From Giardia intestinalis (Eukaryota): a stretch of 64,000 nt of DNA. The stretch lies in the NCBI GenBank assembly GCA_000002435.2, contig CM018791.1. The stretch is one strand, 5' to 3'. The position numbers and the translations under genes were made by a program. Positions 112-45,277 of the stretch are shown piece by piece; position 1 is the stretch's first letter; each line of letters opens with the position of its first letter. The notes beneath the pieces were generated by a model. That model had not been told where the DNA came from and searched no databases. It worked only from the letters and a program-made list of their open reading frames with translations.

Positions 112-2603
112 TTCTTTGCAGGAAGAGAAGAGTAACTCTTACTAGCAGTAAGCTGCTGTAAACCAACAGACTCAGGTTCCTTTCTACTTCGAGATTGTAA
201 TAGCGGGGTCCCATCTGGTCGAGTAAAATCTGTTAGAGGAGTACTACATGGTTCGTCCAAGATGTCTTCGCGAATCCTAGATAAAAGGATGATATTATCA
301 CAGACGTGCTCGTCGTCAACTTCATATACTTGAAAGTGTTTGGCTGTACTAGAATCCTCATAGTCTGTAGAGTCTAGACAGGCGTATCGCCCAGTACTAC
401 TACTTCGTACTTGTGAAGTAGTGATCCTATCAAAATGACTAGAAGTGATCACCACACATGGAATGTATTCATCGTTGATATTAACTTGACTCTCAGGATG
501 CTCGTTGTGTAGTAGATCAATTTCCCTTAGCAAGGATCCACCTGTCGAAAGAATATTTCTGGGTGAAGATATAGTTACAATAGTTGCGCTCATTACATCG
601 TCTCGAGAGGCGATTTCCGTGGCAGTTGACGGCGGAAGCAACGTACACTCACTTATTTTGGGAATAAGGGCAGTAGCAGGAGAAATAATATTTAGATCTT
701 TAGCATTGGTCGAGGAGCTTGGGGGCTGCGCAGTAAACTCAGCATATGGGTCCTCTGATGGTATGTCCAAACCTCCACTACTAGCTGCAAATGAAGGACC
801 AACCACTTCTGGTTCAATAATATCTGGATCCTCATGATAACTTTGTTCATCATAGGTGCTTAAATTCTGAGTTGATGATATGGATGAGTGAGCTAGTGCT
901 TGCATCTCTAGCGACTCCTCGTCCTTTGGAGGAGAAAGATTAACTATGGGAGCATCTTCGCGTAGATCATTGCCATCCATCTCAATAGTTGGTAGATCGG
1001 CTATCACTTCAGGTTGCGATGCAATCACAGCGGGAGATATTGACCCCGATGGCTCAAGCTGCACCTCGTGCTCATCAGGTTGTGGAAGTATAATATCCAG
1101 CGACGCCTTTAATGGTGGTAGAATAGTGGGCGCGCCTGATGAACCACTTAACGGTCTACTAGAGACATGAGTTGAAAGATGCTCATTAGATGCAAAATTC
1201 GCCTGTTCAGATTGACAAGCTTCGTTAGATACAGATGCATCTAAAGAAGAACGGTGGTCATCATCGGTAGAGCGTTCAATGTGAGCAATAGCAGAAGACT
1301 GTCTATGAGGAACAACACTTTCATCATCACCATCCGTTAGACGTCGTAGCAAGACTATTTTATTTGACCCTTCATCCTCCTGCGTAAAGATCCTGTCATA
1401 AACATCCAACGTATCCGAAGCTGAGAGCGGAGGAACAGCAACAATCCCACAATCACTTTTGTTTGCCTGCCTCATAAGATCGGTTAATTGGTTAATGGTT
1501 GTTCGCTCGACTGCAAATGCTGTGAACACTTCCTCTGGAGTCAGCTCCAGACAAGGAAGAGGAGCCTTGCCCATAGATGGCCCCCGCACCTGCTCTAAGT
1601 GTTCTACCCATCGCACCCCTAAATCATCTCCCTCAAAAGCAAACGTCATTGGAGGAGCAACCCCCAGTAGAAGAGCCAAGGATGCAAAATCATTGATAGG
1701 CGAGGCTGTGTCTACACCAGGGAGCATAACACATGCAGCTGGGGTATGAATGTTGTCATTTTGGTTTGAAAATTCTTCGTCTTTGACGCTATCCCACATA
1801 CCGTAGAAGGAAGATAACAGGGCTTTATGGTCAGATAAAGCTTGACTCTTGCTATACTTTAAAACAGTAAACATAACTGCAAAATCGACTTGATTGAAAC
1901 CTCTTTTCTTCATCCTCACGATGTAGTTTGGAGACTTCTGGGAAAATCCTGTTCTGAGAGGATTAAATGAAACTGGCTTTTCACAGATTACTCGTGATGC
2001 ATTGACGACAGAAACTATGGAAATTATAGATGACCGAAGAAGGAGGAGATCGTTTGCAAGGGACTTCCTGCTCCCCTTTCCTCCTTTCAAAGCGCTTTCA
2101 ATATTGCCAAAGGCGCTCTCATATTCCTGAATGCTTGTCAGGTATGCTTCTCTGAGATCTAAAAGAGCTTTTAACTTATTTATGTAGGTGGGGATCTCAG
2201 CCCTGTTTGCATCCAGTCGCTCATAAGCAAGATTGCGCTCTTCAATGCATACATCGAGGCTGTCCCACAGTGGTATAATATCTGTAAGAATATTCTTAGC
2301 CGTCTCAGTACGTCGCAACGGTGCTGGATTGTATGTGCGCGCAGTCTTGTAAGAAACGTCTTTTCTCGGCTTGTGCATTTGTTTTCTTGAGAGATCCGCG
2401 CTCATAAGCAAAGGATTTGCTTGCAAGTAGGGACTCTTGTAGGTGAACTTAGTGCCAGTCTGGGCAGACATGGCAGATGTATTAGTGACCAGACGCCCGC
2501 CAGAGGTAGGTCCACTATCACGACGAGACGTTCTCATTGCGTCAGTTTTTGGTGTGGATGATCGTAACACTGCCTGAGGTCTTGATCGGCCTCCAGTCCT
2601 CAT
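1..2603 (-). CDS. Hypothetical protein, 3'-truncated by the window edge. It is a paralog of the plus-strand gene at 2606..4525 and is Ser/Pro/acidic-rich with a C-terminal EEPEAP repeat.
   Basis: ATG is the reverse complement of 2601-2603. An open frame (MRTGGRSRPQAVLRSS...LWDSLDVCIEERNLAYERLDANRAEIPTYINKLKALLDLREAYL...) runs uninterrupted to position 1. It is absent from the ORF track because it has no in-window stop. The central ~200-aa block aligns by eye with ORF 2606..4525. Confidence 0.7.
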   Translation of the reverse strand, partial: MRTGGRSRPQAVLRSSTPKTDAMRTSRRDSGPTSGGRLVTNTSAMSAQTGTKFTYKSPYLQANPLLMSADLSRKQMHKPRKDVSYKTARTYNPAPLRRTETAKNILTDIIPLWDSLDVCIEERNLAYERLDANRAEIPTYINKLKALLDLREAYLTSIQEYESAFGNIESALKGGKGSRKSLANDLLLLRSSIISIVSVVNASRVICEKPVSFNPLRTGFSQKSPNYIVRMKKRGFNQVDFAVMFTVLKYSKSQALSDHKALLSSFYGMWDSVKDEEFSNQNDNIHTPAACVMLPGVDTASPINDFASLALLLGVAPPMTFAFEGDDLGVRWVEHLEQVRGPSMGKAPLPCLELTPEEVFTAFAVERTTINQLTDLMRQANKSDCGIVAVPPLSASDTLDVYDRIFTQEDEGSNKIVLLRRLTDGDDESVVPHRQSSAIAHIERSTDDDHRSSLDASVSNEACQSEQANFASNEHLSTHVSSRPLSGSSGAPTILPPLKASLDIILPQPDEHEVQLEPSGSISPAVIASQPEVIADLPTIEMDGNDLREDAPIVNLSPPKDEESLEMQALAHSSISSTQNLSTYDEQSYHEDPDIIEPEVVGPSFAASSGGLDIPSEDPYAEFTAQPPSSSTNAKDLNIISPATALIPKISECTLLPPSTATEIASRDDVMSATIVTISSPRNILSTGGSLLREIDLLHNEHPESQVNINDEYIPCVVITSSHFDRITTSQVRSSSTGRYACLDSTDYEDSSTAKHFQVYEVDDEHVCDNIILLSRIREDILDEPCSTPLTDFTRPDGTPLLQSRSRKEPESVGLQQLTASKSYSSLPAKKQPEQQEAPVEEPEAPVEEPEEARLADPAEPVEEPEA

Positions 2604-14297: not shown

Positions 14298-15461
14298 TTA
14301 TCTTTTCCCAGCTGAAGGCATAATCCTAAACCAGAAATCTGCATGGAGCTCTGCTTCCTCTGGCAGATCAGTAACAAAGACACAGTTATTGATAGCATCT
14401 GTACCATACACGGCACGAACGCTCTCTGGAGCAAGATATGTGGCAATCTTAGGTTCAAACGGTCCTGCAAACGCACGAAGCGTCTCCACCATGTTGACTT
14501 CTTCTGGGGGTCTATGGGTAGCTACCTCGAGCGCAATGCAGGGGCCTGTACTGAATACGTCTATGTACTCGCTCCATCGCGGTATAACCCCTTGGTATGC
14601 TGCCATCACCTCGGCAAGATCGTTTGCTGTAGGGATGCACGTGTTGATGCCGGTAATATAAATGTCCGGCGATATCTTGCTGATGTAATTAACCAAGCCA
14701 ACAAGGATATGACCAACATAGTCCTTGAACTTGGGTTGGATTAGCATGACCGAGTTATTTCTGCAGCCAATTGCGGCGACAGGACATAGCCTGAATACAA
14801 TGCCTAGCTCTCTGTCTGCGTCTCCCTTGCTTGCACTCCCGTGGAACGCGTTGCTGGTAACGTCAACACCATATTTTGCGCGCAAGTGCTTCGATGGATC
14901 GCACTTGGATGGATCCGTGGGCCCTATTATATCTCTCCAGGCCAATATAGCGTTTGGGCCTATCAGCTCAATCACACATGCAGGTCCCGCCATGACCATC
15001 GCAGCTAAGTTAGGGAAAAAGGCCTTTCCTATATGTTCTTCGTAAAACGCGTTCACATCGTTCTCCGAGAAGCGTACCATACGTATTCTGCTGATCCTGA
15101 GATTGCGTTGCATTGCTGAGATGATCGCGTCAGCAATAATGATCGGGCTCTCAGCCACCGCGTGAGGCTTCACGATCGCACACGTGGCTTCCTTTTCTGC
15201 GGAGAGGGCATTGCACGTAAAGTCATTTGCATAGCCCACAATCTTGAGCTGGCGTGAGTAGATGGTAACCGTACCACCTACGTGACAGTCTGCGAAGTTG
15301 AACTCCGGATACTGACATTTCTTAAGAAACACCCTCTTGGTAGCGACCTCGTACATGTCTATCTCCCTCGTGTCTGGGTAGTATGAGAGGATATAAGGCC
15401 TGTCTTGGTCAGCAATACGGTCGTACCATAGCACGTTGAAGCTGTAACGAGTGGTATCCAT
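14298..15461 (-). CDS. NME7-like nucleoside diphosphate kinase with an N-terminal DM10 domain and tandem NDK domains. The first track codon is TTG; the real start is the second codon, ATG (MDTTRY).
   Basis: NDK motifs CAIVKPHAV and NAFHGSASKGDADRELGIVF (compare NDK IHGSDSVESAEREIxLWF). The N-terminal ~90 aa are DM10-like. AT-rich cctaaaatttgATG. Confidence 0.7.
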   Translation of the reverse strand: MDTTRYSFNVLWYDRIADQDRPYILSYYPDTREIDMYEVATKRVFLKKCQYPEFNFADCHVGGTVTIYSRQLKIVGYANDFTCNALSAEKEATCAIVKPHAVAESPIIIADAIISAMQRNLRISRIRMVRFSENDVNAFYEEHIGKAFFPNLAAMVMAGPACVIELIGPNAILAWRDIIGPTDPSKCDPSKHLRAKYGVDVTSNAFHGSASKGDADRELGIVFRLCPVAAIGCRNNSVMLIQPKFKDYVGHILVGLVNYISKISPDIYITGINTCIPTANDLAEVMAAYQGVIPRWSEYIDVFSTGPCIALEVATHRPPEEVNMVETLRAFAGPFEPKIATYLAPESVRAVYGTDAINNCVFVTDLPEEAELHADFWFRIMPSAGKR

Positions 15462-17789
15462 CAAATTTTAGGATAAATTTATTAACACAAAATGTCACCA
15501 TTACCTATGGCCTCCGCGATTGCCAGCCCGATAGACTGTTATATAAAACTGAGGTAGTACATCCTTGTGCTTATATTTTAAAAGGTGAGGAGGCCGTTGA
15601 TGCTGCAGCTGAGTGTTTAGATACCACTGAAGCGAAAACAGATCTATCACCTAGGGTCCACTGGCCCATGTGCACACTCCTTGGGCTGGGGACCCAAGGC
15701 TTTGTTGCTTGCTTTGCTCTGTGGGCATTTTTGAGTGCCTGGTTAACTTTATGGTACTCTGCGGAGGATCGCATTTCAGTTATCGTATCGAGATCTGAAA
15801 GGTGAAGAAGGTTTAATGGATAGGAGATGTTTGGCAGAGCCTTTTGACGAATGGTAGCAGAGGAATCCATTAGTGGTCCACAGAGATAATTTTATGCACG
15901 AATCTCGTCCTACCACCTTTATCTCCTTTCAATAATGTACTAATCGTGTCATTGTTTAGACGCTGCTAAGACGCTACACAGATAAATTCGGTAACGGAAT
16001 ATCTCCGTAAGGAAAGCGTGTAAGAGTGTGTTTAATTTAAAGCTGAATAGCAACGATTGCACTATGCCCATGTAGGTATTAAGAGGCTTATAATTACAAT
16101 TCGGTCTCTGTCTTTTGTGGTATACTTGTGATGGTCAAGGATTTAAATCCTTGGCTGTTAGCAAAGTAGACCAATGATAAAGTTGAGGATTGTCTGAGAG
16201 GAGGCAGTAAGTATGTATTTTGTGGAATAATCATAGCAACACTGCTCTTACGATAATCAGCTGGGGTATGCAAGATCCTGTAGAAGGGAATGTGAGGAAA
16301 ACTAAGAAATGGTACAATACTATGCTTAGCAAGACATTCTTTGGTTAATGAAAAAATATAGGTTGTTGATGGCCAATGCACCCTAGCAGTAGATTGCTAA
16401 GAAGCCTTGTGTATGATTAGGCACAAGGTATCCGTGTCTACGATTAGCTGCAGCATCCATGGTTGCATGCACCACAACGAGGTTGCTCCACCAAACCGAG
16501 TGCAAGACACCACCACACAGGCCGATCTGGTATAGACGATGCCATGCTACCGGGTGTGGAGCGGTACTTCCGAACAGTACGCGGTGTCTGTTGTGCATAT
16601 TTAGAGGACCTGGTTTGGTGTATATCGGTGACACACCACAGTTATGCTGAATAACGCCGAGATATCGATGAGTGGACGCACAAGTATTGAAGGCGATGAG
16701 CCACAGGGGCTTCTATGAACTGCTCACGGTGAGTGGAAGTACCGTAGATACCTTCACTACCAGGCACGCTTAACCCAATCTAGAATTAGTATAAAGCATA
16801 GAGTTGGACGGACCTAGACTGCGTCTAGTAAAGCGCAGGACACTTCTAAGAGCTCAACTTAAGGATGGCGAGGCGGCCCTGTAACCCTGCATAGCTGGCC
16901 TTGCATCCAATAAAGACTAGGGGCTGAGTGGCACATATGTTCGTCATCCAGGGTAGCAAATAGCCCGTGAAGCGGCAAGATTAATCTCTCCTGGACGAGC
17001 AACACGTAGTGAGTGTTCGACCAGTACCAATGGGCAAGAGTCAGTTCTCGCCATAACTGGCGCCCGGACGGCGGAAGCCAATAGGAAAGACAGCTCTTAC
17101 CGGAGCGGTACTGGGATGCTCTGCAAGTCAAAGCCAGAAGGGCCTGGTAGCCACACCGGTGTCTGCTGTCGTCAGGCAACCCTGTTAAAGAAGCAGCGGC
17201 TCCTCGAGCGGGGCAGCTTAGAGACCCACTACGTTCTCCTATTCTGCAGCGCATATTGTCTACTGGCAGGGAGCTGATGTCTTTCGTGGTTGCATGGTCC
17301 TGCTCACACCAGAGGCAGAGCCAGACGACGGAGAGTAGGAGACTGACTCCCAGCTGAGATCTGCTTATTCCAGGCCCAACCACACCGCAGTATGCATCCA
17401 CATCGATCTACGGTAGGTGGGCGGGCAGCTGGCTTGCGAGAGGGGAGCGGTGGCTGTGGCCAATCCACTACTAAACAGAATAAATTCATTAATAGAGCCC
17501 CCGAAAATCGCACAATGAAATCTTAGTAATATATAACAGAACGCTTAGCAGTGTTTACAGATGCACGACTACAAGAACTCACTCTTAGATATTCTCATGA
17601 AGATACGTCTTGTCTTGCCTAACAGAACCATTAGTACCCTATCATATTGCACTGCCGTTGCCCTTTCTTCTTCCACTTATGAATTGGATGCATCCATGAT
17701 GAACCATTTACACGTAGATTTACACGTAGAAAGAATCTAGGCAGTGTTTAAGTTTTCCTTAACAGTCATCAATACCCAAAGTCCTGAAA

Positions 17790-19856
17790 TTAGTCTAGCT
17801 TCCCGATGAAGTCCATTACATTGATGAAAATTCCCTCCACGCATATTAGACCGAATAAAGCTATAACGCTCCATGCGAGCATATGACGACGAGGAGTCAT
17901 TTTCGCACGCTCCAGGTCTGGATCAATGGTCCCGCAGATATTTCCTATTTCCATTATGCGTGTCATAGGAACTGCTGGAAGGACATTTGTAACGTCTTCT
18001 GTAATGCACGTTGTCTGCTCTGTAGATTCTGTAGAGTCTATCTTATTAGCCTCAGAGATTCGAATGCTGTTCTGGGTTAGACTGAGCGTTTCAGACTGCT
18101 GGTTGACGCCTTCTTTCTTTGAGAGTGCACGCGTCAGGGTGGGTCTGCTATTAAAAATGGATGTTGTGCGTGGCCGCGAATATTCCACATTAACTGTGAA
18201 TGGTGGTGGCTTGGATGCTTTAGAAATTGGCGACGCCGACGATGTTTGTGATGCAGAAAAGCTGGGGACTGCGGTAGAAAACGACCTTCCACGTATGACT
18301 CCAATAACGGACCGGATGCTCAGCACGGGGTCCTCCATGGATTTGCCGCGGACTTTAGCGGAAGTTACGTTGATAGGATCGGTGTTACTTAGTGCCCTGG
18401 CTCTAGAAAGAACCTCGTTAGCACTGCCGGGGAGCATTAGTGCCAGCACAGAGGTCCCAATAGCCTCTGTGCGTACAACTCCTAGATGATCTGCAGCCTC
18501 CTTGAATTCTTCATTGATGTCATGCGGATACTCGGCTCGGAGAAATGGTAGCTTATAGTGTACCCAAATTGGGACTCCAAAGTAGATCACCCCACCGCAC
18601 AGTGACCCCACAAGTCCAAAAATGGCAGCTATGTTTTCGTAGACAAGGGCTATACCTACACCAGGAATCAAAAACACAAAGCTAAACGCTACAAAGAGCC
18701 CGTACCACCGTCGTGGATTGTTCTCACAATCTACCTTTGTATACGCAATTAAGGAAAGCTTAAGCGGAAACAGAGCAATGGGATACGTAACACAAACAAC
18801 CAGGCCATACATTGCTTTTATCGATGTGATCCAGTAGTCCACACAGATATCGAACGACGATAATAGATTAGGAAGGATTGACTTGCCAAACAAGAGGGCG
18901 CCAAATATGCCTGTTAACACGTATAACATTGTGCAGAAAATGAACGCAATTGTAATTGATATCTTAAGAATACGCATTCGAAGATACATGGGACCACTGA
19001 TGAGTTCGAGCATCGCCGGGACGGCCAACTGAGAGGTATAGTTTCCTTGAAGCAAGGGTATGTAGCTGAAGAAGAACAGGAACCCCATGGGCAGGGACCC
19101 GAGCCCCAACCCCTTGCTCGGGGACGGCCACCAGGGGATCGCAGGGCGGAAGAAGCCCCCTGCCGTGCTGCCGTTGGTCGGCTTTGCTGAAGGAAAGCGA
19201 GGGCAGACCTGCCCGTTGCGTCCGAGGGAGATGAAGTAGTATACAGGGATGGTGACGGCCATGCCCATCGCAAAGAAGATGGAGACAGACGCTATGGCAG
19301 AAAGCACCTTCGTGGACTTGAGGAGAGAAAGAGGAAGGATGATGAGGAAGGAGACGCCGGCTTTTATCACGTATGGTATCCACTTGTGTGAGTCGAACGA
19401 AGGAAGGAATGACTGTAGAATCCCAATAACTGATTGGCTAGCAATGATGATGTAGCTCGTAAGAAAGCCAAAGTAGAGAACTATAAGCATTGCGTCCATG
19501 ACGTATGCAAACTTTGGCCCAATGACCTTTTGGGCTAATGCCCGATACGAGTAAGACCGCGTAAGGTAACAACCTTCAATAACGGGGAAAATAAGAACCA
19601 GCGCTATGGCGAAGGATAATGGTAAAACAAAGAACATTAAACCTAAGCCAACTCGTGAGAAAATGTATGCAATGGATAACAAAGCAGATCCCACGATTTG
19701 GGAAATAAGCATAAAGGAAGCAGAGACTGATGAGACATTCCCCCTAGGGAAGCCTTCGTTTTGTTTGTTATTGAGGTGCTTCTCGCCGAACAAACCGTCC
19801 TTTCCACTCATTTGAATTTTAGTGTTACAGGTGCTTGCTTTCACGTCTATCAACAT
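17790..19856 (-). CDS. Amino acid transporter of the Aa_trans/AAAP family (SLC38-like), with about 11 TM segments and a long hydrophilic C-terminal tail. The track start is TTG; the first ATG is at 19856 and an alternative is at 19811.
   Basis: N-terminal motif ASFMLISQIVGSALLSIAYIFSRVGLGLMFFVLPLSFAIALVLIFPVIEGC followed by repeated hydrophobic helices, typical of Aa_trans permeases. Confidence 0.6.
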   Translation of the reverse strand: MLIDVKASTCNTKIQMSGKDGLFGEKHLNNKQNEGFPRGNVSSVSASFMLISQIVGSALLSIAYIFSRVGLGLMFFVLPLSFAIALVLIFPVIEGCYLTRSYSYRALAQKVIGPKFAYVMDAMLIVLYFGFLTSYIIIASQSVIGILQSFLPSFDSHKWIPYVIKAGVSFLIILPLSLLKSTKVLSAIASVSIFFAMGMAVTIPVYYFISLGRNGQVCPRFPSAKPTNGSTAGGFFRPAIPWWPSPSKGLGLGSLPMGFLFFFSYIPLLQGNYTSQLAVPAMLELISGPMYLRMRILKISITIAFIFCTMLYVLTGIFGALLFGKSILPNLLSSFDICVDYWITSIKAMYGLVVCVTYPIALFPLKLSLIAYTKVDCENNPRRWYGLFVAFSFVFLIPGVGIALVYENIAAIFGLVGSLCGGVIYFGVPIWVHYKLPFLRAEYPHDINEEFKEAADHLGVVRTEAIGTSVLALMLPGSANEVLSRARALSNTDPINVTSAKVRGKSMEDPVLSIRSVIGVIRGRSFSTAVPSFSASQTSSASPISKASKPPPFTVNVEYSRPRTTSIFNSRPTLTRALSKKEGVNQQSETLSLTQNSIRISEANKIDSTESTEQTTCITEDVTNVLPAVPMTRIMEIGNICGTIDPDLERAKMTPRRHMLAWSVIALFGLICVEGIFINVMDFIGKLD

Positions 19857-20067
19857 GTATTTATGAAGATAATCGCATGCTTCTTTGGTGTTACATATGT
19901 CACTTAAACTAGCATTTTGCTTTTCTTTTGTTGTTTTTAAGCCCGCAACATAATGCTTAAAACACGACAAGAATCATATCTTTGTTGAGTAGTACATCTT
20001 TCTAGTCTTAAGTAAAGGGAGGCAAAGGTAGAATCCACTGGGAAATGCATCCAAATAAAAAGCCATT

Positions 20068-20859
20068 ATGACCCGAGACGAGGAGATGATGTTTACGCTT
20101 CGCACCGGGGCAATTCCCCAGCTTCCCAGTCCAGAAGTTGTTCCATCCACCACTGGGGCCGAGGAGTTACATCAGATGATCATCCTGAAGGAGTGGAAGC
20201 GGGTCTGGTATCTTGGCGGTCATGGGGGCGTGCTCATTGAGATAGCTACACCATACGACGACGTTCGCAGAGGTAAGATGAACTGTCTACACTATGCGGC
20301 TCTAACGGGATCTACTGAGGCTGTGCGCTTACTCATGCAATCTGCGGGTAGGAAGGCGGCAAAGATCTTTATTATCAATGGCCCCAAGTACCATAATCCA
20401 TCTGCCTTGATGTTGGCTGCAGCTGGGGGACACACAGAGGTTGTGCAGCTCCTTATGAACGCGGAAGCACGCATGACAGAGGATTGGGGTGGCAAGACTG
20501 CGCTCATGATTGCCGCTTGGAATGGACATTGCGATGCTGTGCTCCTTTTGGCCGATGCTGAAGCCCGAATGCAGGATAACGCTGGGATGACTGCTCTGAT
20601 GCTTTCGGTGTGGACGGAGATGCCGGGGTGCACCTCTGTCCTGGCTCCTCTAGAGGCCGGTCTGATGGATGCATCTGGTCATACTGCGCTGTGCCACGCG
20701 TGCATGCACGGCTCGGTTGACTGTGCTAGACTTCTTGCTCCTCACGAAGCGGGTCTCCGCCTTCCCAGTGGGCAAACAGTTGCAGAGGCTGCCCTCTCCA
20801 AGACTCCTAGCCAGTACAAAGATGCTGTTGCTAACGTTCTAGCATCGTTCTTGCAGTAG
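20068..20859 (+). CDS. Ankyrin-repeat protein of the Giardia 'protein 21.1' type.
   Basis: Tandem ANK repeats CLHYAALTGSTEAVRLLMQ / SALMLAAAGGHTEVVQLLMNAEARMTEDWGGKTALMIAAWNGHCDAVLLLADAEARMQDNAGMTALM. AT-rich initiator ccaaataaaaagccattATG. Confidence 0.8.
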   Translation: MTRDEEMMFTLRTGAIPQLPSPEVVPSTTGAEELHQMIILKEWKRVWYLGGHGGVLIEIATPYDDVRRGKMNCLHYAALTGSTEAVRLLMQSAGRKAAKIFIINGPKYHNPSALMLAAAGGHTEVVQLLMNAEARMTEDWGGKTALMIAAWNGHCDAVLLLADAEARMQDNAGMTALMLSVWTEMPGCTSVLAPLEAGLMDASGHTALCHACMHGSVDCARLLAPHEAGLRLPSGQTVAEAALSKTPSQYKDAVANVLASFLQ

Positions 20860-22663: not shown

Positions 22664-22970
22664 TTTTCATTCTCCTTTGCTTAAGAAAAATGCTGACCAT
22701 TTTAACGGACGGCCCCCAAGATTGCTACGTTAAAAGAATGGAGCCCCGGGCGTAGCCACAAAACTCATAGAATTTACAAAGCTGTAGGCCAAAAGAAGCT
22801 TGAAACCAAGTAACAAATGTAATTATTACCTACTAAAAGCAAGTTGCCACACATACTGTTATGTGCGCACCTATAGTCGCGAAACCTGCACCGCATTTTC
22901 GTGCCTCTGTGTCCTGAAACGTACGTAGCTCATAGCTCACGATAACTTTTAAATCCATAAGCTGCAAAAT

Positions 22971-25900
22971 ATGACAGTGCTACTGCCTCCGATCATCCTC
23001 ATTCCTGGGGTTGGTGGATCAAAATTGGACGCAGTAAATAAGAAGAATGACAAAGTAGAGCGGGTCTGGATCTCGAAAGATGTCCTGCCTGTGCCTCAGC
23101 TGGGGAAAAAATTTGTGCATTATCTGTGGGGCCGGCCGGATCCCGAGACGCAACTATACACCAGTTATACTGAAGAGTATGCCGAAACGCGAATAGTTGA
23201 TGGCCTAGAGGGATGCTGGAGGCTTCTCGACCATTGGGTTATAAACACAGTCGAGCAACTTTTTAAGAACACAACTCTTGGGAAGTACTTCGTCACAATT
23301 ATTGGACGACTTATGCAGGACTATGGGTACCAACCGAACAAGAATCTTTTCGGCTTTTCCTACGACTGGCGCCAGCCTTTGTATGCGGAGTGTATCAAAG
23401 GAGAGCTGCACAAACTGATTATTCGTGTACGTGAGCTTAACAATGGCATGCCTGTTAACATCATTGCCCATTCCCTTGGAGGACTGGTCGGCCGAACTTA
23501 CTGCCAACTAACGCCGGATTGGATGACACACATCAGGCGCTTTATTACCATCGCGACCCCTTTTGATGGCAGTAGTAGCATGACGCTGAACAGCTTCATC
23601 AATGGGTATGCGCTCGACGTCCCAGGCATGAAGCTTGTGGCAGCTAGAGGAATTCAGGCATCCTCTTCCGTGACCATTTACCTATCGAACTTGCCCCCTC
23701 AGTATGAAGGAAATGATGTATCTCATAATAGGCGTAAACCTTTGGCCTACCTTTCCAATGGCTTGCCATACTGTACTTATTACTACAACAGCTGCATATA
23801 TCTCAAGAAAGTACACAAAGGCCTTAAACGGGCTAAACCCACCCACTACCGCCAAAGAACCTATCTTGAGAAACCGCCGGGATACCCTATTGACGGCCAC
23901 GAGCCCCTACACTCGCTCCTCTTTAACCCCCTACCGGCTTCCCTTAATGAGGAAGGGCAGTACAAGTCGTCTCAGTTTGATACGGATACCTTAGTTCACG
24001 ACGCAGAGAAAGACTCCAGACTACCCTGTAGTCTCAGGTCGCATTCTACTTCTCCGATCTCGACTAAGAGAAGCTCTAAGGTACTCAGCTCGTATCGCCC
24101 CTCGTCCTCCGTAACCAAAGCAGGAATCCAGCACAGGCGAATGCACTCTGACACCGTAGAGAAGCTCAAGATCACCCACCAAGAATTGACGCCCAAGCGC
24201 TACTCTGAGATCGTGCAATCAGGATTCGATGACACTGAGGATAAATCCTATCAAGCCAAGCTCTCTATAGGGCGAGCAATCCACTCTCGGAATGGATCTT
24301 TTATCACGCTAAAACAAAACCTTGATGTTCCAGAGCAGACCCCGAGCCACAGAAGGTCAGGCTCTTCAGCGTCGTCCGTTAGCCCAGGACCTAGTCACAT
24401 TGTGAATTATCACGAGCACAGCCATCGAGCAGTATCGCAAAGACAGTCGCGGATGCTTAATTTATCAAATATCTATATCACATTGGACTTTTCCAGATAT
24501 GGAAACAACGTCCCTGATATAGGTGCCATTCTATTGGGTCGATTCTTGAGCGACCCTACTCTTATTGCCAACGATAAGAAAAAGGAAGTGTATCAGCTCC
24601 TTATGAAGAACATAGAACGCAAGGTAATTGTCAAGACAGTAGGCATTAAGAAGCCGCGTGCAAGTGGGAAGAGTCTAGACACCCTGCTTGTACCGAACTA
24701 TAAGAGCAAGAAGTCGATGGCCGCTATTGAGGAGATTGTGAACACGAAGGGTACATGGAGATGGGAAGCCTACTCAATGTGGCCGCACCTAGGACGGACA
24801 AATGCGACGAGCATGGCCGCACATCCTTATTTTACGTTTAACAGCGTTGGATTCCCAGTGTTGAGGGAGGATTGCCCCTACCGCAATGAAGTCATCTCTG
24901 GAGTCATGCCCCACGGAAGCTCTTTCTCGCAGAACAGGGACCTGTATCTGATCGCGTCTGCCCAGGCCATATACATATCCACGAGGCACCTGACCGAGCC
25001 TCTGTACAGGATGGTCCTCGTTGGAGACGAGGAAAAGATGGTTAAAGGAAAGCAGTTAAACCTAGAATATGTCCCTCCGGACGATCTACATCTAATCACT
25101 GACACGACCATCTACAAGGCAGATGCCAGCGGTGTGTATAGCGCGCAAAACAAGGTCGCCGACAAGACAGACTCAAGTAACCGCGAAAAGACTTTGAAGA
25201 AAGGCATCAAGAAGCACTCCCATGGCAAGAAGATGCGCACTGTTGTGTGCCAAACCCCTGCTCCGTGGGTTTTTCTGCTGGACATTCTTGAGCAACCCTT
25301 GTACAATTTGCTGCGGCAGGTAACCAAGGTGGGAACCCTAGAGGCATATCTCTTTCAGCCATTCAAAGAATACTGGAAGTCAGTTGCTCGGGCCAGAGTG
25401 AAGGCGCTTGAGTACAATCTCCAAGAAGACATCGGATCATCTCAGATAATGACCAGGAGCGAGTCCGTCTTTCCTATGTTCACCAGTGTCTCCCTCCAGG
25501 ACCATAGTGCTCTCGAGCGATCACTGACAGCCAGCATACCCAGCAATGCCCTCACGGGGGATGCAGCCTATAAGTTGGACCTTGTACCAGAGGCGCCAAA
25601 CGGGGGCCTCACCAATGCACCAAGTCCCGAATCAACCACTCTGAGTATTCCTAGAAGGCCTAAGCAAGCTTCTCCAGTTCGGCCAGAAAAGTATCTCCGG
25701 AAAAGAAACGGCGACCCTCGGTGCATCCCCAAGGAGCTCATCGCCCAGTACCCCATCCTGTCCTCGATGAAGCCATGCACAACGGACGACTTTAGATTTA
25801 TCAGCATAAATGGGGGAAATGTGCCTACACCCATACACACGATCTATCCCAAGCCGATAAGCACATACGACGAGCTCCAGAGCCAGCTTCCTGTCTTCAT

Positions 25901-26147
25901 AATGGGCAGAGGAGACGGGACGGTCCTTCTCTCGGGAGCGCTGAGCGACAACTTTGACGACGCGCTCGTCCACGACAGAGTGGTGATCCCGGATGCCACG
26001 CACGGCGGGCTGCTCCACGACGAGGCCGTCTTCTACCTGATCTACATGGGGCTCGGGCTCCCCCTGCAGCTCCCGCACACCCACGGCGAGCCGGAGCCGG
26101 AAGAGCGGGGCGCCGGGCCGGCGAACGGCCGAGCAGAGGTTGAGTGA
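22971..26147 (+). CDS. LCAT/PDAT-family phospholipid acyltransferase or phospholipase, with a very large internal or C-terminal extension.
   Basis: IILIPGVGGSKLDA, FGFSYDWRQ, and nucleophile elbow AHSLGG. The Asp/His triad motifs MGRGDGTVLL and ATHGGLLHDE sit ~800 aa downstream, near the C-terminus. Confidence 0.8.
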   Translation: MTVLLPPIILIPGVGGSKLDAVNKKNDKVERVWISKDVLPVPQLGKKFVHYLWGRPDPETQLYTSYTEEYAETRIVDGLEGCWRLLDHWVINTVEQLFKNTTLGKYFVTIIGRLMQDYGYQPNKNLFGFSYDWRQPLYAECIKGELHKLIIRVRELNNGMPVNIIAHSLGGLVGRTYCQLTPDWMTHIRRFITIATPFDGSSSMTLNSFINGYALDVPGMKLVAARGIQASSSVTIYLSNLPPQYEGNDVSHNRRKPLAYLSNGLPYCTYYYNSCIYLKKVHKGLKRAKPTHYRQRTYLEKPPGYPIDGHEPLHSLLFNPLPASLNEEGQYKSSQFDTDTLVHDAEKDSRLPCSLRSHSTSPISTKRSSKVLSSYRPSSSVTKAGIQHRRMHSDTVEKLKITHQELTPKRYSEIVQSGFDDTEDKSYQAKLSIGRAIHSRNGSFITLKQNLDVPEQTPSHRRSGSSASSVSPGPSHIVNYHEHSHRAVSQRQSRMLNLSNIYITLDFSRYGNNVPDIGAILLGRFLSDPTLIANDKKKEVYQLLMKNIERKVIVKTVGIKKPRASGKSLDTLLVPNYKSKKSMAAIEEIVNTKGTWRWEAYSMWPHLGRTNATSMAAHPYFTFNSVGFPVLREDCPYRNEVISGVMPHGSSFSQNRDLYLIASAQAIYISTRHLTEPLYRMVLVGDEEKMVKGKQLNLEYVPPDDLHLITDTTIYKADASGVYSAQNKVADKTDSSNREKTLKKGIKKHSHGKKMRTVVCQTPAPWVFLLDILEQPLYNLLRQVTKVGTLEAYLFQPFKEYWKSVARARVKALEYNLQEDIGSSQIMTRSESVFPMFTSVSLQDHSALERSLTASIPSNALTGDAAYKLDLVPEAPNGGLTNAPSPESTTLSIPRRPKQASPVRPEKYLRKRNGDPRCIPKELIAQYPILSSMKPCTTDDFRFISINGGNVPTPIHTIYPKPISTYDELQSQLPVFIMGRGDGTVLLSGALSDNFDDALVHDRVVIPDATHGGLLHDEAVFYLIYMGLGLPLQLPHTHGEPEPEERGAGPANGRAEVE

Positions 26148-26291
26148 AGGGATCCTACGTGATGGCTTCGTCGTCATGACCGCCTCCGCCAGGACAGCTA
26201 TTCGTCATCGGGTTGGGGTTCTTTTTCTCGGGGGATCAAAATTCAAATTAAAATACATTTAATGTGATTTATTCTGGATGCTAAGAAGAGA

Positions 26292-44824: not shown

Positions 44825-45277
44825 TTATTTAATCTCTTGAATTTTAGCATATCATCATACGCAGCAGTGGAGCTGGCCAGCAACGAGTACACAAGAGAAT
44901 ACCTGACTCCTCACTGTAAAACTTCTTTATCATTACCAGTACGATTAATAAATTGCTGGATTGCTTCGTACAGTTCGCTCATTCTTTCGTAAGTTAGCAA
45001 GCGTAAACTAGTAAATCTCGCAGCATGTCTTTCCTTCAATTAAAAATACCTGAGATTGACAAAGGGGGTTAATTATATTTTCAACGTACAACGACATGAA
45101 GCCACAAGGACCGCGACTCATGGTATAAGCAGATCTGTTAGGATGTTATTCTTAACCTTGTTGTTAATTCTTCGTTAAGCCCCTTCTCTTGAGCTCACCT
45201 TTCAACAACAGTGCAGACATTTCACGTGTTTTTGTGAAAATTTCAATTAGAAAAGCTCTTATTAGATTTAATTGCTC

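Follow-up and report, generated by a model that had tools for sequence, protein, structure and literature searches.

The locus described here raises a simple question, namely why a compact region of the Giardia genome should hold a gap of 2.3 kb (15465-17789) between two genes. It lies within a 64-kb stretch of DNA of Giardia intestinalis WB (assemblage A, scaffold CH991782), hereafter the window. The first-pass annotation of this DNA had drawn attention to the gap as outsized, and it is: between ORFs of at least 150 aa, the next-largest spacer in the window measures 447 bp, and the longest ORF between the two flanking genes, an NDK7-like gene and a transporter gene, has 180 aa. The features discussed below are the following.

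14298..15461, minus strand: NDK7-like nucleoside diphosphate kinase gene GL50803_14135 (Pfam NDK and PH_NDK7_N)
15571..15870, minus strand: orf99, a predicted protein-coding gene of 99 codons, unannotated, intact and with low dN/dS
15871..16626: non-coding spacer of AT-rich to intermediate composition (GC 0.38-0.43), upstream of orf99
16627..17469: the GC-rich core, which is the copy at locus 1 of a dispersed low-copy repeat (~843 bp), with a second copy elsewhere
16806..17789: stretch found in RNA-seq assemblies (L015 and L016) continuous with the transporter ORF
16859..17401, minus strand: ORF180 (also called as 174 aa), located within the repeat and probably open by chance
17470..17789: AT-rich sequence (GC 0.373) flanking the transporter gene on its 3' side
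17790..19970, minus strand: amino-acid transporter gene (Pfam Aa_trans), its 3' end toward the gap

The NDK7-like protein is identical to XP_001706258.1/KAE8302729.1 of G. intestinalis WB, which bears out the first-pass assignment of the DNA to Giardia, its gene being listed at CH991782:58822-59985 in Table S1 of Franzen 2013 (PMC3610916), and the transporter has an orthologue, GLP15_1127, at 89% identity. A literature search for GL50803_14133, GL50803_14134 and GL50803_14135 gave no matches. It had been proposed that the gap is bounded by the 3' ends of both neighbors, which holds for the right edge, formed by the 3' end of the transporter gene, but not for the left, where the NDK7-like gene has its 5' end, the start codon pointing toward the gap.

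Part of the answer is that the gap is not empty. The initial impression that it carries no credible ORF is contradicted by orf99 (15571..15870, minus strand), a 300-nt ORF that is intact and of equal length in WB (A1), DH (A2), P15 (E), and three assemblage-B contigs (L007, L011, and L012), and is under purifying selection, with dN/dS values of 0.187 (A-E), 0.15-0.16 (A-B), and 0.166 (E-B). Identity between A and B reaches 80% at codon positions 1 and 2 vs. 50% at four-fold sites, and the frame has been kept although these four-fold sites are saturated. An intact frame across A1/A2/E/B together with dN/dS of 0.15-0.19 points to an unannotated small gene and, judged by this conservation, orf99 is a conserved small gene missed by annotators, an orphan of the G. 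intestinalis complex. The exact protein comes solely from automatic calls made on Logan assemblies, its 90% cluster is made up of Logan/ENA calls with none from NCBI or UniProt, and just one other cluster appears among 1.84 billion representatives. No Pfam or NCBIfam family was found for it, and a single-sequence AlphaFold model, with two helices and a low-confidence pLDDT of 56.6, is too uncertain for a fold search. The gene would share its direction of transcription with the downstream NDK gene, and the first ~30 bp of the spacer 15871..16626 hold an AT-rich element that may be compatible with a Giardia promoter. Since the product of orf99 is in no NCBI or UniProt source, the gene could join the Giardia annotation; its predicted peptides include DLDTITEMR and ALPNISYPLNLLHLSDLDTITEMR.

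The remaining ~1.9 kb of the gap is, on the alignments, diverging at the neutral rate. Identity between WB and P15 is 0.725 over 15871-16380, 0.64 over 16381-17450, and 0.68 over 17381-17789, to be compared with 0.68-0.71 at the four-fold sites of three flanking genes, which we used as the neutral yardstick. The tract is crossed by 26 gap events, mostly not multiples of three, and P15 carries a ~210-bp deletion relative to it. Both ends are orthologous in P15, 15871-16380 with seven gap events and 17470..17789 with an identity, estimated by eye, of ~70% over the AT-rich first ~320 nt. Within assemblage A, WB and DH are 0.978-0.986 identical in the gap vs. 0.954-0.979 at four-fold sites. It is essentially the single comparison of A with E that carries the neutral-rate argument. 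WB and P15 have both kept six cysteine codons in one frame of the plus strand at 16381-16480, which hints at a more recent coding constraint in that short segment.

In assemblage B, nucleotide homology with A ends at the start codon of orf99. The B loci (L007, L011, and L012) show no homology to the A/E tract beyond 15871, and there a 622-aa NEK kinase and a VSP precede orf99 instead, placing a synteny breakpoint at this position. Neither tblastn with the assemblage-B VSP and the HCMP-like protein nor tblastx detected anything in the gap, leaving a pseudogene derived from the B neighbors (NEK kinase, VSP, or HCMP-like) unsupported. A plain neutral spacer, lacking conservation across isolates, had been named as the outcome that would speak against any function here; the neutral evolution and the absence of the tract at this position in B agree with it, but its presence in both A and E does not. 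An exact 25-mer from the best-conserved block had no match among JGI metagenome contigs.

Base composition sets the middle of the tract apart, as had been noticed from the sequence: the core at 16400-17470 has 53.8% GC vs. 38.4 and 37.3% in the AT-rich flanks. At the scale of the 64-kb window the enrichment is modest, with 6.4% of all 1071-bp windows equal or richer in GC and the core only about 1.8 SD above the mean. The corresponding core of P15 is much richer (64-72% GC vs. 54% in WB), with 160 weak-to-strong differences vs. 66 strong-to-weak, a contrast that plain decay does not explain.

The core is largely made of sequence that is present at least twice. An 807-bp match with 96.0-96.9% identity was found in five contigs (L025-L029) whose flanks differ from those of the window on both sides; after a 73-bp insertion homology resumes up to 17469, and the locus-2 end of the repeat was also found in WB-type contigs (L030-L033). 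Both loci occur in a single sample (SRR10368398). Locus 2 lies on another chromosome, beside a C-terminal VSP remnant whose tail (...FLCRGKA*, in L029) matches Pfam VSP with an E-value of 0.0033 and is accompanied, with one mismatch, by the VSP poly(A) motif ACTTAGGTAGT[AG]AA[CT]GC described after the CRGKA tail (PMC3091692). An AT-rich stretch of 2.8 kb, poor in ORFs, likewise occurs at locus 2. The two loci appear to exchange sequence: the locus-1 copy of DH has 98.1% identity with locus 2 of A2 vs. 97.2% with locus 1 of WB, locus-2 alleles are found in its SNP cluster at 16772-16827, and the copy in contig L001 is a mosaic, variants that point to interlocus gene conversion. The repeat is in general also the reason why short-read contigs of many isolates break here, and the draft contigs of P15 end at the locus as well. 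Heterozygosity between A1 and A2 types was considered as the cause of these breaks and discarded, since the break points fall elsewhere than the sites at which WB and DH differ; that GTGACACACCACAG at 16629-16641 might be a splice site was likewise dropped, the positions of the contig ends not fitting it.

Within the window copy nothing of a VSP could be recognized. Six frames of the WB gap and the P15 core gave no match to VSP (Pfam PF03302) at E<=10, and locus 1 has neither a C-terminal transmembrane helix with a CRGKA tail nor the VSP poly(A) motif, the sole match to the latter in the window (15548-15564, with three mismatches) being at chance level. With tail and motif found at locus 2 only, the VSP association is one of neighborhood. 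A wider Pfam search, which took in the long open stretches, Cys-rich sub-stretches, and every one of the six frames in the WB gap, the P15 core, and locus 2, returned just the locus-2 VSP tail, and an NCBIfam search had no match. A decayed pseudogene or dead repeat fragment had been among the candidates suggested for the gap; the part that stands is a decaying low-copy repeat with a VSP remnant at its other locus; neither a known gene nor a reverse transcriptase was recognizable in the core.

How, then, should the core be interpreted? That it is a dead retrotransposon fragment (GilD-like), or another mobile element inserted at both loci, is very unlikely. Its occurrence on different chromosomes, at no fewer than two loci and with sharply bounded homology, is what such an element would leave, but six frames of WB, P15, and locus 2 contain no reverse-transcriptase, endonuclease, or other Pfam domain, the junctions lack target-site duplications, terminal repeats, and poly(A) tails, and copy number is low. 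Besides, the locus-1 copy predates the A/E split and the locus-2 copy is only ~4% diverged, so segmental copying or gene conversion fits better than transposition. We give still slightly less credit, and consider it highly improbable, that ORF180/174 (16859..17401, minus strand) is a young, fast-evolving coding gene that is found in assemblage A only and has two loci there. The frame is indeed open in all four assemblage-A copies (WB, DH, L001, and the locus-2 copy), it is a recurrent prediction of gene callers, and of the 16 sites variable among these copies eight are synonymous and eight non-synonymous, the fewest non-synonymous among the six frames. However, this synonymous excess is not significant (14 of the 16 changes are transitions) and becomes weaker still once six frames have been tested, and at 3-4% divergence such an ORF would survive by chance about half the time by our estimate. 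In P15 the frame is broken by indels, shifting between A and E, and the ORF at the same place has no protein similarity to it (best E-value 0.13). No Pfam or NCBIfam match was obtained, and the exact 174-aa product and its 90% cluster derive from automatic Logan/ENA calls, not from NCBI. The translation is as rich in Trp, Cys, and Arg as the first-pass annotation had stated (3.9, 5.6, and 7.8% vs. 0.6, 2.4, and 5.2% in the genes of the window), a composition like that of translated GC-rich non-coding DNA. By these comparisons ORF180 is a chance ORF and not a conserved protein.

Among RNA-level explanations, a structured housekeeping ncRNA gene in the core is exceedingly improbable and this reading can be regarded as largely refuted. 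The suggested candidates were RNase P/MRP, telomerase RNA, a snRNA, or a snoRNA cluster, and they could draw on a GC-rich block amid AT-rich flanks without a conserved ORF, on the fact that no Giardia telomerase RNA is named in the consulted passages of a 2024 telomere/telomerase review (PMC10999387), and on a 6-bp plus-strand hairpin at 16815-16829 whose pairing is kept between WB and DH via G-U and double changes. Against them, the proposed Rfam covariance scan found nothing across the 64-kb window at gathering score and nothing even at E<=5 in 15300-17950, with chance-level matches only in the P15 orthologue, and ARAGORN found no tRNA. The 12-nt ncRNA processing motif [TAC]C[CA]TT[TC][ATC][CTA]T[CTA]AA (PMC3510501) matches seven times in the window and not once in 15465-17789. 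No 8-mer of a telomere template (at least 1.5 repeats, permutation of CCCTACCC...) occurs in the gap, and the two telomere 7-mers that do occur are at chance frequency and not conserved in P15. Folding z-scores (-2.6 to +1.5) stay within the range of coding controls. As for conservation across WB, P15, and GS, used to recognize Giardia ncRNAs, P15 offers only neutral-rate similarity with large indels, the hairpin region being deleted, and B has no homology beyond 15871.

More credit, although still on the unlikely side, is due to the possibility that the tract or the 843-bp repeat acts as a functional lncRNA or as a regulatory long 3' UTR of the transporter, kept for its transcription, length, or small motifs and not for its overall sequence. 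Two RNA-seq assemblies, L015 (SRR2642195, covering 16809..19085) and L016 (SRR2642201, covering 16806..18949), both with 100% identity, extend from the transporter ORF ~980 nt into the gap, so that 16806..17789 may belong to the transporter transcript, as a long 3' UTR or through read-through; the two datasets belong to the RNA-seq of Ansell et al. 2015, as listed in Table 1 of Roy 2017 (PMC5224939). Such lengths have precedent, Giardia 3' UTRs having a median of 80 nt but reaching several kb, in lengths conserved between assemblages and amid pervasive transcription (Franzen et al., 2013; PMC3610916). Also in favor are the persistence of the tract at the same position since the A/E split, a 27-nt block at ~17304-17330 invariant in WB, DH, and P15, the similar ORF-poor island around the second repeat locus, and a minus-strand AGTGAA at 16759-16754, which lies 28 nt upstream of the end shared by six contigs at 16726. 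On the other hand, divergence is neutral throughout with many indels, including the ~210-bp deletion of P15, folding stability shows no excess, and assemblage B lacks the tract; a perfect 27-nt run has an estimated chance expectation of ~0.1 at this divergence. The contig ends at 16726 and 16806/16809 were considered as proof of poly(A) sites and rejected, as k-mers shared between the repeat copies also end contigs there and explain them better.

The tract can be compared with several known systems of Giardia. GC-rich islands of VSP, HCMP, and RT genes coincide with synteny breaks (Jerlström-Hultqvist et al., 2010; PMC3091692) and the surroundings of VSPs are gene-poor (Xu et al., 2020; PMC7000408). 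The tract resembles such variable-family islands (VSP, HCMP, NEK, and protein 21.1) in lying at a gene-order break between A/E and B, with a NEK kinase and a VSP in B, in being a GC-richer block of a compact region that is gene-poor, repeated, and recombining, and in having a second repeat copy that abuts a C-terminal VSP remnant with its poly(A) motif. It differs in that the window copy has no recognizable VSP, HCMP, NEK, or reverse-transcriptase sequence, no CXXC-rich frame, transmembrane-CRGKA tail, or VSP poly(A) motif, and a GC content only modestly raised (54%). The likeness to long 3' UTRs (PMC3610916) comes from the RNA-seq contigs that run ~980 nt beyond the transporter stop. Giardia ncRNA genes, with an AT-rich initiator and a 12-nt 3' motif (Hudson et al., 2012; PMC3510501), are similarly intergenic and with AT-rich stretches nearby, although the gap lacks such a motif, is not conserved in assemblage B (GS type), and matches no Rfam family. 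The non-LTR retrotransposons GilM, GilT, and GilD (Arkhipova and Morrison, 2001, as cited in PMC7000408) share with the repeat a dispersed occurrence at non-syntenic positions, but the repeat has no RT/EN domain or element-like termini and its copy number is low, a distinction drawn from these features.

Taken with these comparisons, we consider it reasonably probable that the gap consists of the orf99 gene plus a ~1.9-kb non-functional relic, transcribed passively, of a rearrangement-prone VSP/NEK-type variable region. Before A and E diverged, a GC-rich sequence would have lain between orf99 and the transporter gene, perhaps itself a variable-family gene or sequence adjacent to one, and would subsequently have drifted neutrally, accumulating indels. 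In the A lineage, a ~843-bp piece (16627-17469) might have been copied to, or exchanged with, locus 2 by the VSP pseudogene remnant, and the repeat copies may still homogenize via ectopic gene conversion. The tract would have no sequence-specific function, its transcription as a long 3' UTR or read-through being passive amid the pervasive transcription of Giardia. Besides the single comparison behind the neutral rate, the GC contrast with P15, the six retained cysteine codons, and the ORF180 frame open in all four assemblage-A copies, further points run counter to this relic model: the core has no positive homology to a VSP or any other gene, and two similar islands, each with a GC core and an ORF-poor spacer, could mean a unit in use, e.g., a lncRNA. 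The VSP link itself comes from the adjacency at locus 2 and the neighbors in assemblage B. We see a small chance, less than that given to the lncRNA or 3' UTR alternative, that the ~843-bp repeat with its ORF-poor spacer is a functional unit, either a lineage-specific lncRNA/3'-UTR module or a VSP-associated promoter of recombination mediating interchromosomal ectopic exchange, orf99 being separately a new conserved Giardia-specific small protein. If true, a VSP-associated recombination element would help reshuffle variable-antigen regions.

The locus can be struck from the list of hidden-RNA-gene candidates and, if the tract is indeed a relic of a variable region, would offer a clean example of a compact genome retaining a kilobase-scale neutral relic at an inter-assemblage breakpoint. 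A low-copy repeat engaged in interchromosomal gene conversion near VSP remnants would also be relevant to the reshuffling of variable-antigen regions in Giardia. The assembly breaks driven by the repeat are a warning for comparative genomics and read mapping at this locus. Lastly, the short tandem duplication reported near the right end of the gap does exist, inside the 3' flank of the transporter gene, although ~5 bp to the left of where it had been placed: it is a 12-bp unit repeated 2.1 times at 17706-17730, perfect in WB, imperfect in A2, and absent in P15.

The tract at 15465-17789 lies between two minus-strand genes and contains a third. Window positions equal CH991782 scaffold coordinates minus 44524, an offset that follows from the positions of the nucleoside diphosphate kinase (NDK) gene (CH991782:58822-59985) and a protein 21.1 gene (CH991782:64592-65383, window 20068..20859) in Table S1 of Franzen et al. 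(2013).

14298..15461, minus strand, NDK gene GL50803_14135, by protein identity to the WB entry
15571..15870, minus strand, orf99, 99 codons, conserved in assemblages A, E and B
17790..19970, minus strand, amino-acid transporter gene, Pfam Aa_trans

The 387-aa NDK product is identical to XP_001706258.1/KAE8302729.1 of G. intestinalis WB (assemblage A), and its nearest relatives outside Giardia are those of the diplomonads Hexamita and Trepomonas; the first-pass assignment to Giardia was correct. As the first-pass annotation had noticed, the gap between the NDK and transporter genes has no long ORF (the longest, ORF180 at 16859..17401, minus strand, has 180 aa and is indeed Trp-, Cys- and Arg-rich) and is exceptional in size, no other spacer that separates ORFs of 150 aa or more in the window exceeding 447 bp. 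The GC-rich core it described stands out from its flanks (53.8% GC at 16400-17470 vs 38.4% and 37.3%) but is modest against the whole window, where 1071-bp windows average 47.9 +/- 3.2%, placing it only about 1.8 SD above the mean, and 6.4% of such windows match or exceed it. The gap is not bounded by the 3' ends of its neighbours, as had been proposed, since on the left it meets the NDK gene (minus strand) at the start codon, nor is it free of credible ORFs, given orf99. The reported tandem duplication exists, as a 12-bp unit at 17706-17730, imperfect in sub-assemblage A2 and missing from P15 (assemblage E).

The small gene orf99 is intact, with exactly 99 codons, in six sources: WB, DH (A2), P15 and three assemblage-B contigs. 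Between A and B its codon positions 1+2 are 80% identical, the four-fold degenerate sites of neighbouring genes being at 50% (saturated), and its dN/dS (Nei-Gojobori) is 0.187 for A-E, 0.15-0.16 for A-B and 0.166 for E-B. A-B nucleotide homology ends exactly at its start codon, and the AT-rich element ATAAAATTAT, 17-26 nt upstream of the ATG, would be compatible with Giardia's short promoters. The exact protein has no source other than automatic calls on Logan assemblies; the rest of its 90% cluster consists of Logan/ENA calls, none coming from NCBI or UniProt, and HMMER, run against 1.84 billion representatives, returned a single other cluster, an assemblage-B variant. Pfam and NCBIfam gave no family match, and the single-sequence AlphaFold model, with two helices, is uncertain (pLDDT 56.6). 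From sequence comparison we conclude that orf99 is very probably a real, Giardia-specific small gene, with no assigned function. One B-type variant (P0060) has residues ~65-78 in another frame before regaining the original one, either a compensated indel pair or a sequencing error; this stretch belongs to the C-terminal third, where conservation is lower.

The GC-rich core is a stopping point for short-read contigs of many samples. Contigs of 16.5 kb end at 16632 in at least 20 samples, including one genomic DNA run (Klotz et al., 2023), and those from the opposite side begin at 16686, 16726 or 16806/16809. Five further contigs (L025-L029), found through a variant of the ORF174 product (the 174-aa call of ORF180), carry 16627-17433 at 96.0-96.9% identity, flanked on either side by sequence unrelated to the window; after a 73-bp insertion their homology resumes to 17469, the exact point of the GC drop in the window. 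The window copy (16627-17469) is termed locus 1 and this second copy locus 2. In the window's plus orientation, one locus-2 flank encodes ...GAIADIAAVAVIVVEELIGFLCRGKA*, the transmembrane/CRGKA tail of a variant surface antigen (VSP; Pfam VSP positions 361-388, E 0.0033), with the VSP-specific poly(A) motif ACTTAGATAGTAAACGC downstream, one mismatch apart. On the opposite side, 2.8 kb of AT-rich DNA with few ORFs leads to SprT-like and endonuclease VIII-like genes, which in WB lie on a 1.49-Mb contig, the window genes being on a 1.97-Mb contig. Each has two WB accessions (KAE8301637/42, KAE8301638/41; L025 3764-5711), in an order suggestive of an inverted duplication that is centred on two genes. 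WB-type contigs with the WB endonuclease protein start 66-89 bp inside the element and carry locus-2 variants, and both loci are present in sample SRR10368398; WB therefore has at least two copies. That contigs end at 16632 means, with 31-mers, that the sequence from ~16603 on must occur in identical form elsewhere, which suggests a further copy. The other end of these 16.5-kb contigs, at about position 78 as reckoned from their size, is presumably due to a ~25-nt unit, GGCGCTTCAGGTTCTTCGACGGGC, repeated at 65-bp spacing at 1-92, in a large minus-strand ORF running off the window's left end.

The DH locus-1 copy is 98.1% identical to the A2 locus-2 copy vs 97.2% to the WB locus-1 copy, a dense cluster of WB/DH SNPs at 16772-16827 consists of locus-2 alleles, and one contig (L001) is a mosaic of both types, all of which argues for exchange between the copies by interlocus gene conversion. 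Locus 1 is probably the older site, since P15 has the core there.

Two contigs from RNA-seq runs of Ansell et al. (2015), listed in Roy (2017) (SRR2642195 and SRR2642201), extend without a break from within the transporter ORF as far as 16809 and 16806, at 100% identity to locus 1, so that ~980 nt past the transporter stop codon are transcribed. Giardia shows pervasive transcription and has 3' UTRs that occasionally reach several kb (Franzen et al., 2013, PMC3610916). On the minus strand, an AGTGAA at 16759-16754 lies upstream of 16726, where contigs repeatedly end; it is only suggestive of a transcript end there, because repeat-derived graph branches end contigs at the same place.

The tract is orthologous in DH, in one A2-like metagenome contig and in P15, whose draft contigs ACVC01000093 and ACVC01000094 both terminate within the core. 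WB-P15 identity is 0.725 (15871-16380), 0.64 (16381-17450) and 0.68 (17381-17789 alignment), with 26 gap events, one of them a P15 deletion of ~210 bp; four-fold sites of three flanking genes are 0.68-0.71 identical. WB-DH identity (0.978-0.986) is in keeping with four-fold sites (0.954-0.979). The 1.9 kb outside orf99 thus appears to be non-coding and to evolve neutrally. ORF180 was rejected as a conserved protein, its frames shifting in P15 and the P15 ORF in the same place lacking protein similarity (best E 0.13). Its eight synonymous and eight non-synonymous changes among four assemblage-A copies are not significant, given 14 transitions among the 16 and a test over six frames, and Pfam found no domain in any frame of the WB and P15 tracts.

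A structured ncRNA gene, one of the first-pass candidates for the island, found no support. Rfam gave no match in the whole window at the gathering score, none in the gap at E<=5 and chance-level matches only in the P15 orthologue; the gap holds no tRNA, nor any telomere-template word longer than 7 nt. Of seven matches across the window to the 12-nt 3' processing motif that Giardia snoRNAs, snRNAs, RNase P/MRP and trans-spliced intron halves share (Hudson et al., 2012, PMC3510501), none falls within the gap. Folding z-scores for 200-nt windows on both strands lie between -2.6 and +1.5 (mean -0.35), similar to coding controls. We regard it as rather probable that the island is instead orf99 plus a neutral relic of a VSP-type variable region, transcribed passively, whose GC-rich core would be a surviving piece kept as a low-copy repeat, its copies converting each other between loci. 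Left unexplained by this neutral relic model are the GC of the P15 core and six kept cysteine codons. The former is 64-72% vs 54% in WB (L010 1-800; L023 12330-12424), with 160 W>S vs 66 S>W differences, a pattern for which GC-biased gene conversion, or a repeat in P15 as well, could be responsible. The latter, common to WB and P15 (L010 ~760-900, minus strand), lie in one plus-strand frame at 16381-16480, where P15 reads GQCTSAVGCQETSCSVKHKVPVSAVSCDIYGCVQC and the WB copy contains a stop codon; the stretch has no Pfam match and may be the trace of a cysteine-rich gene whose decay postdates the A/E split.

In assemblage B (two GS-type contigs and metagenome contig L007), a 622-aa NEK kinase with ankyrin repeats lies ~300 bp upstream of orf99, followed in L007 by a VSP, and no homology to the A/E tract is left at this locus. 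A B-like contig with the transporter orthologue runs on into a 211-aa cysteine-rich membrane protein; this right-hand breakpoint is tentative, because this contig, a scaffold, has an N-run close to where homology ends and its transporter is prematurely stopped. That the tract marks a synteny breakpoint matches published accounts, in which GC-rich islands of VSP/HCMP/RT genes coincide with synteny breaks (PMC3091692) and gene-poor surroundings are typical of VSPs (PMC7000408). In the B-like metagenome scaffold L024 (2560-2700), the transporter orthologue has lost 1 nt and stops prematurely, and it shows no homology to the last ~60 codons of the A/E gene, those for the final hydrophobic helix. 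The position coincides with an N-run, so that an assembly artefact is possible.

A perfect 18-bp palindrome, CAAGGATTTAAATCCTTG, at 16136-16153 in the AT-rich spacer, whose palindromy is lost in P15, falls within the windows whose plus-strand folding z-scores are lowest (~-2.5), and may be related to these. Outside the gap, the processing motif occurs in three other spacers, at 20008-20019 (minus strand, in 19971-20067), 22730-22741 (minus, in 22664-22970) and 45032-45043 (plus, in 44825-45271), and at 26140-26151 (minus), overlapping the 3' end of ORF 22971..26147. These four sites, where Rfam gave no match at the gathering score, could belong to genes for snoRNAs or other ncRNAs.
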